A stretch of DNA of 27,188 bases from a virus (Duplodnaviria > Heunggongvirae > Uroviricota > Caudoviricetes): the IMG/VR virus record IMGVR_UViG_2579778634_000008, positions 1 through 27,188 of that record. The stretch is one strand, 5' to 3'. Shown one piece after another: positions 21,001-24,000 of the stretch. The position numbers are program-made. Position 1 is the first letter of the stretch. Each line of letters begins with the position of its first letter.

Positions 21001-24000
21001 AGTAACGCCGTAATCCGCACGCTGGGGAAAGTTAACCGCTTCCTGGCAACGGTGAACACGTCGTATAACCCGGAATTCCTGGTCAGTAACTTCATCCGTG
21101 ACGTGCAGACGGCGGTGATGAACCTGAAGGCGGAGCAGGGAAGGAGCGACGGTAAACTGAAAGGGCTGGATAACTTATCCGCCCTGGCTGTGGTGAAAGA
21201 CAGCCGGTCTGCCATGTCTGCCGTATACGCCAGTCTGCGTGGTAAAACCCTCACGGGCAACGGTGCGCAGTGGCAGAAGGTGTGGAAAGAGTTTGTTGAG
21301 GACGGAGGTAAAACCGGCTGGTTTAACATGGGTGACCTTGAAGGCCAGCAGAAGGAAATGGATCGCCTTGTATCGCTGGCGAAGGGAGGATGGAAAGGCC
21401 AGAGTATCGGTGCATGGCATTCGTTCCTGAACCTGGTCGAGGATGCCAACGGCGCGGTTGAAAACGCTCTGCGTCTTTCTGCCTATAAACACGCCCGTGA
21501 TGCCGGTTTGTCACGCCAGCAGGCGGCATCTCTTGCCAAAAACATGACGGTGAACTTTAACCGTCGTGGTGAGCAGGGAGCGCTGATGAACTCGCTGTAT
21601 ATGTTTGCCAACGCCAGCATTCAGGGGACCGCAAACCTGGTGAGAACGCTCGGACATCTTAATGGCGACGGGCCGTTACCGGAGCGCCTTCGCTGGAAGA
21701 ATCTCAATGTACCGCAGAAAATCGCGCTTGCAGCTGTGGGAGCGGGTTATCTGCTTGGCTCGCTTAACCGCAGTGTTGCGGGGGAGGATGATGACGGGGT
21801 TAACTGGTATGACAAGGTGCCGTCTCATGTGAAAGAGCGTAACCTCGTCATTATGAAATCGGTGTTCGGGGGCAAGGCCGGAGAGTACTGGAGTATTCCT
21901 CTGCCTTACGGGTACAACGTTTTCTTCCTGCTCGGGCATACTGCTGAAGGTGTGGCAGCGGGCGACCTGACTGCTTCACGTGCTGCCGGTAATGTTGTCG
22001 GTGGTATCCTGGGGGCATTCAGTCCTGTGGGCAGTGAAACGTCGGAAACACTGTCCGGGGCATTGCTGAAAAATGCAGCGCCGACCATTCTGCGTCCGTT
22101 TGCGAACCTTGCCATGAATGAAAACTTCATGGGGGCGCAGATTTACCAGGAGAACATGCCATTTGGCACACCGAAACCGGACAGCCAGCTGGGCAGACGT
22201 TCAACGCCTGAGGCGTACAAGGCGTTTGCATCCTGGCTGAATGCGTTCTCAGGTGGCAGCCAGTATCGTCCCGGCGCGGTGGATATCACACCGGAATCGC
22301 TGAAATTCTGGATTGACTATATCTCCGGAGGGACAGGGCGCTTCATTTCCAAAACCACAGATGCGGCGGTGAAATCGCTGAACGGTATTGATATACCGGA
22401 GCAGCAGGTGCCCTTCCTGGGGAAAATTTCGGGTGAGGTGATGCCGTATGCAGACCAGCAGAAGATGTACGACCGGATGACAGAGGTTGCGCAGTATCAC
22501 GCAGAGCTGAAGAGTCTGACCGGTGCAGAAAGAACGGCGTTCATTGACGAGAACAACGGAAAATTGTTGATGAACGGGCTTATGCAGGATACCCGGAAGA
22601 GACTGAAGGATTTGCGCAAACAGCGCGATGCCATTTATGCCGACAGTTCTCTCAGTCTGGCGCAGCAGGCGGCGATGGTGAAATCGGTAGAGCGGGATAT
22701 GAAGGTTGCCGTGGATCGCTTTAACCGCGAGTACAACAAAAAAGTGGGAGTGGATTAACAGAAATGGCCCCGTACGGAAGTGCGGGGCTGATTAAGAAAT
22801 AAACACACATTAACCTGTAATAACCGGAGCTATTAACATATAGTCAGAAAGAGTATTTCATGTGAGACAGAGAGCCGATTTATGTTTAATGAAGAAAAAG
22901 TTGCGTAAATGGCAGCGTATTTGCTGAAAAAACATGGCGGATCTATGCGTTTCATTAAGCTGATGTATCTCTCTGACCGCAAAGCAATGGAGTTGTATGG
23001 TTTTCCCATTAGTGGTGATCATTATTTCTCTATGAACAAAGGACCCGTTTTATCGCAGACATATTCTTTGGTTAAGGATGGAAGTGAAAACGAGTACAGT
23101 CCGTGGGAATCATGGATATCTGATGTAGCGGATCATAAGGTTGAAATGTGGCGTACATTTTCTTCTGTTGATGAGCTGGGGGAGTTATCGCCCGCAGAAA
23201 TAGAGTCAATGGACATAATTTTTGGTCAATATGGAGGTTGGGATGCGTTCAGGCTTTGTGATGAAACTCACAGAATTTGCGGTGAGTGGCGCGATCCGCA
23301 TGGTTCATCAATTCCAATCAGCCTTAAGAATATATTTATTGCTCTTGGAAAGTTGCCAGAAGCAGCAACAGTAATGGCGAATAGCATTAATGCGCAAAAT
23401 AATCTTGATATATTATTAGGTGATCTGAGGTAGTCGGGATGATGTTCAGCCCTTATTTGTATTTACCGGGGAGGGAAGATGTTTAATTCCGATTCCCCGG
23501 CTCCACAGGCCTAACCTAACTTTATGTAACAGTCCATGCAGGGCTGAAATCTGCCTGCTGAAATAACTCCGTTAGCCCGCTAATCTGCTTTAACCTCAGA
23601 ACTTCATCCTGGTCCATCCCCAGTTCTGTTCCGATACGTTCATCAGTCCAGCCAAGACGTGAAAGATCTCTGACAATATCAGACATTGAGGTTATCTGGT
23701 GTTTCCCCCTGGCTCTGTTATGTCGGATAGTCGCGGCAATACGTGAGGTTTGTCCCTTTCGGTCTGGATTAATACAGGTTACTGGTAGCCAGCCTTTCAG
23801 GCGTTTTCCAGTAACTGTTCTTCTACCTAGTAACTGCCTATGAAAACCATCCACCACCAGGTAATGGCTTGTTTCTTCCGAAACAACAATTGGTTGAGTA
23901 AAACCGTCTTTTTCCAGAGATTGTTTCAGTAATTTTTTTTCGCTTGGGGCCATGACATTGGGATTATAATCGTTAGCGACAATTTCATCCGCTTTTACCC

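Follow-up and report, generated by a model that had tools for sequence, protein, structure and literature searches.

SocA of Caulobacter, the antitoxin on which DUF4065 was founded, serves ClpXP as an adaptor for SocB. The Panacea domain (PF13274) is common to SocA and to the protein described here, and their partner toxins are unrelated. PanA antitoxins of the T6 kind bind their toxin directly to neutralise it and need neither ClpXP nor Lon (PMC8832971). Cluster T6, entitled 'EndoA/PemK/MazF-family RNAses' and with the gene order A|T in Dataset S1 of Kurata et al. 2022 PNAS (PMC8832971), lists Pantoea septica LMG 5345 and 'Yersiniaceae 2016Iso4', and also other strains of Pluralibacter gergoviae, Proteus vulgaris and Photorhabdus laumondii. 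The cluster includes the P. moraviensis PanAT, in which the toxin is a translation inhibitor that complexes with its cognate PanA; growth inhibition and neutralisation by direct PanA binding have been validated experimentally for this pair only (PMC8832971).

The window analysed here is the whole 27,188-nt stretch of the IMG/VR virus record IMGVR_UViG_2579778634_000008. One of its genes is very probably a decaying orphan PanA antitoxin, left by a T6 PanAT module whose toxin gene has been deleted, and subject to neutral decay. It belongs to the same PanA subfamily as the P. moraviensis protein, as seen from the N-terminus M(I)F.E.KVAQ, the GPV motif and the conserved helix 2, and its intact relatives share the A|T order, with a -1/-4 overlap of the two genes. 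In the window, by contrast, only ~34 nt of the toxin gene remain, and the antitoxin gene has a stop at codon 9 and lacks three residues of helix 2; the copy is a remnant rather than a working pair. It reveals no new mechanism, being a degraded member of a toxin-antitoxin (TA) family that is already known and characterised by experiment.

The Panacea-domain ORF and its surroundings

The codons ATG (22882-22884), TTT AAT GAA GAA AAA GTT GCG, TAA (22906-22908) and ATG (22909) stand in one reading frame, as an earlier note on this DNA had read them. The ORF that starts at the second ATG encodes 174 aa and is matched by the Pfam profile SocA_Panacea (E-value of 2.5e-19, 70.7 bits versus a gathering cut-off of 25.7, residues 16-127), which bears out its description in that note as Panacea-like. 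A PDB sequence search with an intact PanA gave no match. The identical sequence is present in E. coli EC2, inside a 933W-like prophage beside ynfF, where RefSeq (PGAP) places the CDS start at the equivalent of 22909 and uses the label 'Panacea domain-containing protein'. This annotation needs correction, the gene being a damaged orphan derived from a PanAT (T6) module. The neighbours are those given before, i.e. a giant ORF (2787 aa) upstream and a convergent ibrB-like gene (23522..24166) downstream. The features of the locus are collected in Table 1.

Table 1. Features of the panA locus in the window, with the basis of each assignment.
Feature	Position	Strand	Basis or remark
Giant LPD5/LPD1/MuF_C/LPD38 polyvalent protein gene (context, not partner)	14395..22758	+	Annotation; PanA-free in O121:H19
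GAGAG, SD-like motif	22870..22874	+	7 nt 5' of the ancestral start ATG 22882; putative function, from sequence
Ancestral start and codons 1-8 (MFNEEKVA) of PanA, now a stranded 8-codon mini-ORF	22882..22905	+	Subfamily conservation
TAA nonsense codon in place of the conserved CAA (Gln9)	22906..22908	+	Sister loci, homologues, P0202
Remaining 174-codon PanA (Panacea-domain) ORF, WP_032144006.1	22909..23433	+	Pfam, RefSeq; translation would need reinitiation at the TAA-abutting ATG
Single AAGCTGATG copy; tandem pair in the ancestor, 9-nt slip deletion	22957..22965	+	Comparison with O104:H4 and P0202
5' remnant of the PanT toxin gene (cluster T6, MazF fold)	23439..23472	+	Nucleotide comparison with O157 and the E. 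coli P2-like partner
ibrB-like (ParB_N-like) and ibrA-like (PAPS reductase + DUF3440) cassette (context)	23522..25377	-	Profiles, annotation

An SD-like motif also precedes the equivalent upstream ATG in intact homologues, and no strong SD precedes ATG 22909. Ribosomes that terminate on the 8-codon leader could reinitiate at the ATG abutting the TAA and produce a clipped protein of 174 aa; judged from the sequence, such reinitiation is plausible because the SD-like GAGAG would serve the upstream ATG. A scan of the region 22650-23650 for sigma-70 promoters found no site, and the sole terminator-like match near panA is a weak 5-bp stem across the TAA-ATG junction.

A nonsense codon and a nine-nucleotide deletion in panA

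The earlier note had left two possibilities for the in-frame TAA, either initiation directly after the stop or a nonsense mutation that has clipped an N-terminal extension. A protein search with the read-through sequence (183 aa) retrieved 215 homologues, the distant ones being 183-189 aa long and covering 99-100% of the query. About 100 homologues start with MFNE(R/E)KVAQMAAYLL, in which Gln9 is near-invariant, and the residues M1, F2, K6, A8, Q9 and M10 are each at least 90% conserved in a 40-sequence alignment. Codon 9 is CAA in the O104:H4, O157:H7 (933W) and cM8a prophages and in 26 IMG/VR loci. The intact 186-aa allele P0202 (HHY7204489.1), which starts with MFNEEKVAQMAAYLLKKHGGSMRFIKLMKLMYLSDR and falls within the 90%-identity cluster of the window protein itself, also has Gln at this position. 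TAA is found at codon 9 in all ibrBA-linked full-length copies inspected. Metagenomes scanned for the DNA signature without deletion or truncation gave no match, and a looser scan returned TAA-type copies only. Since codon 9 is CAA, or Gln at the protein level, in the sister phages and in these ~100 homologues, the TAA is, on sequence comparison, a nonsense mutation by which the N-terminus was clipped. The alignment with homologous prophages that the note had proposed thus gives a sense codon at this position elsewhere. The conserved N-terminus MF.E.KVAQM of the T6-associated PanA subfamily is not intact in the window, the TAA parting MFNEEKVA from the remaining ORF. In the AlphaFold model of an intact homologue (pLDDT of 95.7), helix alpha1 comprises residues 4-17, and the TAA would cut this helix in half.

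That ATG 22909 is the native start, with the upstream ATG…TAA as a chance in-frame mini-ORF, is highly improbable. The RefSeq PGAP CDS does begin there, and the homologues P0004 and P0010 are likewise annotated from an internal Met. However, the codons upstream of these two starts are intact and read MFNEEKIAQ and MFCEEKVAQ, respectively; the short starts are gene-calling choices and lend no support to a native internal start. Kurata et al. 2022 (PMC8832971) restored MIFSEQKVAQ to the mis-annotated P. moraviensis PanA before its validation. Homologues do not uniformly begin at the equivalent of 22909: the nine upstream residues, MFNEEKVA followed by Q, are the conserved N-terminus of the subfamily and do not follow a chance ATG. 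Native initiation at 22909 is refuted by this conservation and by the codons 5' of the P0004 and P0010 starts, and the CAA codon of the sister phages also stands against it. The TAA could also be a sequencing or assembly error, or be read through, with a probability that we regard as negligible. The identical TAA occurs in independent complete genomes, in a phage genome, in IMG/VR contigs and in 11 metagenome contigs, and such recurrence across independent assemblies refutes a sequencing error.

The antitoxin gene carries a second lesion. AAGCTGATG is present once in the window and twice in O104:H4-type loci (FIKLMKLMYLSDR) and in P0202, where it encodes KLMKLM. A 9-nt in-frame deletion after position 22965 has removed KLM from the motif LKLMKL(L/M)YL, which is conserved across all homologues and forms the start of the central helix alpha2 (residues 24-42 in the AlphaFold model of the intact homologue). 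An intact central helix 2 is a feature of PanA proteins, and the window protein lacks three residues of it. In the account of Kurata et al. (PMC8832971), the conserved core of Panacea is formed by helix 2, which bears a specificity-determining residue. These two lesions aside, every invariant residue is kept in the 174-codon ORF (alignment with 38 homologues). The GPV motif of strand beta2 is present as NKGPVLSQ; G57, P58 and L60 are invariant among the homologues, and V59 is at least 90% conserved. Neither the deletion after 22965 nor the ~34-nt toxin remnant at 23439-23472 had been noticed at the first reading of the sequence.

The T6 toxin and its remnant

In every intact homologue examined, an ORF of ~133 aa on the same strand overlaps or abuts the PanA stop codon; the loci are those of Mixta, Yersinia (two prophage contexts), Enterobacter, an E. 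coli P2-like prophage, a Salmonella lambdoid prophage and Shigella. Conversely, PanA was found immediately upstream in 27 of the 29 partner-carrying loci of GTDB species genomes, the two exceptions being contigs with little or no sequence upstream of the partner. Three partner proteins compared with Pfam at E-values up to 1 gave no match, PemK/MazF included. PADLOC and NCBIfam matched neither PanA nor its partner, and in PHROGs the partner is found only in phrog_19071, of unknown function. The partner family has the SH3-like barrel fold of MazF/Kid/CcdB. Two of the partner loci examined here, those of P. septica LMG 5345 (partner 100% identical to P0123) and 2016Iso4, are members of the T6 list. 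The partner is a ~133-aa PanT of cluster T6 with a MazF fold.

This toxin differs from the MazF/Kid (PemK) endoribonucleases in several respects. It is without a Pfam or sequence-level match to them, it has extra C-terminal helices and a set of invariant residues of its own, its RNase activity is putative, and it is neutralised by PanA and not by MazE. The invariant residues of the T6 PanT family are H21, H23, C26, D56, C59, H66 and H71, arranged as HLHxxC … DxxC … HxFxxH (alignment A2, e.g. L026:2501-2902 and L021:3543-3947). To our knowledge, such a His/Cys/Asp set is not typical of MazF. From the alignment, these residues may form a metal site or a catalytic set unlike that of the canonical MazF RNases.

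The T6 PanT gene is often uncalled by gene finders. The ORF of ~133 aa downstream of PanA is intact in Yersinia (L008-L010), Mixta (L005) and the E. coli P2-like prophage (L021) yet is missing from the called genes, so the gene is systematically under-annotated and the paired PanA looks like an orphan. The partner gene of the E. coli P2-like prophage gave no blastn match in 5,426 complete E. coli genomes. A chromosomal intact module of PanA and T6 PanT, in its Shigella/E. coli version, is present in 206-208 of these 5,426 genomes (about 4%). It is annotated there as 'Panacea domain-containing protein | hypothetical protein' (H101-H130, e.g. NZ_CP028112.1 5122190-5123110), and in Shigella draft contigs the module is located near fur.

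In the window, the PanA stop codon (TAG, 23431-23433) is followed at 23439-23456 by ATG ATG TTC AGC CCT TAT, encoding MMFSPY. On its 3' side are a 9-for-2 nt replacement, CCGGGGA, and then unrelated sequence that runs into the 3' end of ibrB; the resulting 15-codon ORF ends at 23486. The stub aligns with MMFTPYRRGT… of O157 and with MSFTPYRRGTVLAP… of the intact E. coli P2-like partner. A tblastn search of the whole window with the partner found no other copy or trace. The toxin gene that lies directly downstream of panA in T6 modules is thus reduced in the window to a stub of ~34 nt. The earlier statement that no small toxin gene is adjacent is correct for an intact gene and had overlooked this stub. 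Larger partner remnants are present in O157. When the O157 partner remnant was used as a protein query, only remnants of 62 and 37 aa were retrieved, with no intact E. coli partner of this allele.

A non-canonical partner had also been put forward, namely the C-terminal domain of the giant LPD38 protein, which PanA would neutralise. Adjacency alone speaks for this, and we find it scarcely conceivable. The MazF-fold gene downstream is the partner of the subfamily in the 27 loci counted above, a canonical PanT follows PanA in all intact homologues, and the 5' stub of this true partner lies downstream of panA in the window itself. Besides, intact PanA homologues occur in many contexts without an LPD38 gene, and LPD38 genes occur without PanA. 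In O121:H19 (L004), the giant gene is present with no PanA sequence after it, and 425 genomes match a query that includes the 3' end of the giant gene versus 176 that match the PanA region. This distribution, together with the stub of the true partner, rules out the giant protein as the toxin.

Decay of the module in related phages

The ORF is the PanA (antitoxin) component of a type II PanA-PanT module, in which the toxin gene normally lies immediately downstream and is translationally coupled. We propose that a 933W-like prophage ancestor carried such a module, with the giant LPD38 gene on one side and the early-left region on the other. The lineage of the window has lost the toxin gene except for ~34 nt beside the ibrBA cassette. 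Its loss may have freed the antitoxin from selection, and the antitoxin would then have acquired the CAA to TAA change at Gln9 and the 9-nt deletion, by slippage between tandem repeats, at the start of helix alpha2. PanA would thereby have lost its function.

Related phages present the module in several states. Type A, the state of the window, combines the TAA, the KLM deletion, the toxin stub and the adjacent ibrBA cassette. It was found in 18 of 5,426 complete E. coli genomes, in the inducible and viable phage PhiR5_2, in four IMG/VR contigs, of which one is IS-disrupted as well, and in 11 metagenome contigs. Further lesions have been added to this type: an extra deletion of 26 codons (L097), a frameshift (L100), an IS1 upstream (L020) and IS elements that remove the 5' part (L015, L056). 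Type B (O104:H4) has CAA at codon 9 and breaks off after codon 40 or so; some copies have the KLM slip and others do not. Type C (933W/O157) also has CAA, with a frameshifting deletion after codon 27 and an internally deleted partner remnant of 62 aa. In type D, MFNE is joined directly to the C-terminal part of the partner. As judged by sequence comparison, the 933W-like relatives of the window hold at least five other, independent decay states of the PanA-PanT module. The earlier suggestion of an orphan or decaying antitoxin is in line with these states, with the toxin stub and with the two lesions. The locus clearly illustrates, as a series found in nature, how a TA module decays once its toxin is lost, and small 'hypothetical proteins' annotated at the same site in the 933W, Sakai and O104:H4 Stx phages (e.g. 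L0135, WP_000481378.1) are further remnants of the module. The ibrBA cassette adjoins every TAA-type copy whose downstream sequence was inspected, including ten full-length metagenome contigs, and ibrB is 100% identical in four other TAA-type loci. The arrival of ibrBA and the disappearance of the toxin gene go together.

Among four TAA-lineage haplotypes, 4 non-synonymous sites and 1 synonymous site are polymorphic. In pairs of intact homologues, about 33 non-synonymous and 87 synonymous differences were counted, a ratio that contrasts with that of the TAA lineage (Fisher p = 0.027). The 4:1 ratio of this lineage fits the neutral expectation of 3.8:1, for small counts in a young lineage. The loci compared show no differences over the 856 nt that make up ibrB and the two intergenic regions. 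The non-synonymous sites are Asn/Asp at 23329, Leu/Ser at 23354, Asn/Tyr at 23389 and Gly/Ser at 23419; compared with P0202 (Asp, Ser, Tyr), the window haplotype has the derived residues Asn, Leu and Asn. All four sites sit within 91 nt (23329-23419), in the last 35 codons of PanA, a clustering with P of about 0.005 in simulation. Drift could account for it, or else a recombined patch or selection acting on the C-terminal tail, and in this respect the clustering counts against decay. Two other observations sit uneasily with decay: the frame of 174 codons is open and has kept its invariant residues apart from the two lesions, and the ORF is identical or nearly so in the 18 complete genomes, the 11 metagenome contigs and the inducible phage, which might indicate residual function.

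The clipped PanA may still be functional, produced by termination-reinitiation at the TAA-ATG and kept as a stand-alone antitoxin against the T6 PanT of the host or of a competing prophage. T4 Dmd is the comparison for such an anti-addiction or anti-defence role of a stand-alone antitoxin. The open frame with its invariant residues, the adjacent stop and start codons, the presence of the gene in a viable phage (PhiR5_2) and the C-terminal clustering of the non-synonymous changes would all agree with this possibility, and the chromosomal PanA-T6 PanT modules described above would provide potential targets. However, the lesions strike the most conserved N-terminal segment and the central helix. 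Sister phages show at least five other routes to the destruction of the module, and on the TAA background further deletions, a frameshift and IS insertions have been added, which would not be expected of a gene under selection. ATG 22909 is without a strong SD, and PanAs reportedly recognise their own toxin specifically (PMC8832971). Given where the lesions lie, how repeatedly the module was destroyed in sister phages, and this reported specificity, we consider a residual neutralising role unlikely. In a more specific form, the clipped PanA, expressed by termination-reinitiation, would be the free-standing antidote of the phage to the chromosomal T6 PanT, and the C-terminal substitutions would represent retargeting; this we regard as very unlikely. 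Neutral decay of an orphan antitoxin thus stays our preferred reading.

Some other features of the region deserve mention. Directly 3' of the stop codon of the giant ORF is a 9-bp hairpin with a GGAA tetraloop (GCCCCGTAC-GGAA-GTGCGGGGC, 22767-22788), with no U-tract after it. Even in the O121:H19 prophage, with its divergent flanking sequence, the core CCCCGTACGGAAGTGCGGGGC of the hairpin is unchanged. The hairpin may be an RNA-stability or termination element of the late operon. A mosaic swap point is located to the right of the PanA remnant, as seen from comparison of the window with L002, L003 and L016. The position of the ibrB/ibrA cassette of the window is taken by DUF551, ead-Ea22 and DUF4752 genes in the O104:H4 type, and by BOF (YgiW-like) and Hok/Gef genes in the O157 type. 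Farther on, two tandem AntA/AntB-type antirepressor paralogues are encoded on the minus strand (25574-26365 and 26453-26737), the second of which RefSeq calls a C-terminally truncated pseudogene. Next to this second paralogue, a truncated 4Fe-4S protein gene beside ynfF marks the end of the prophage.
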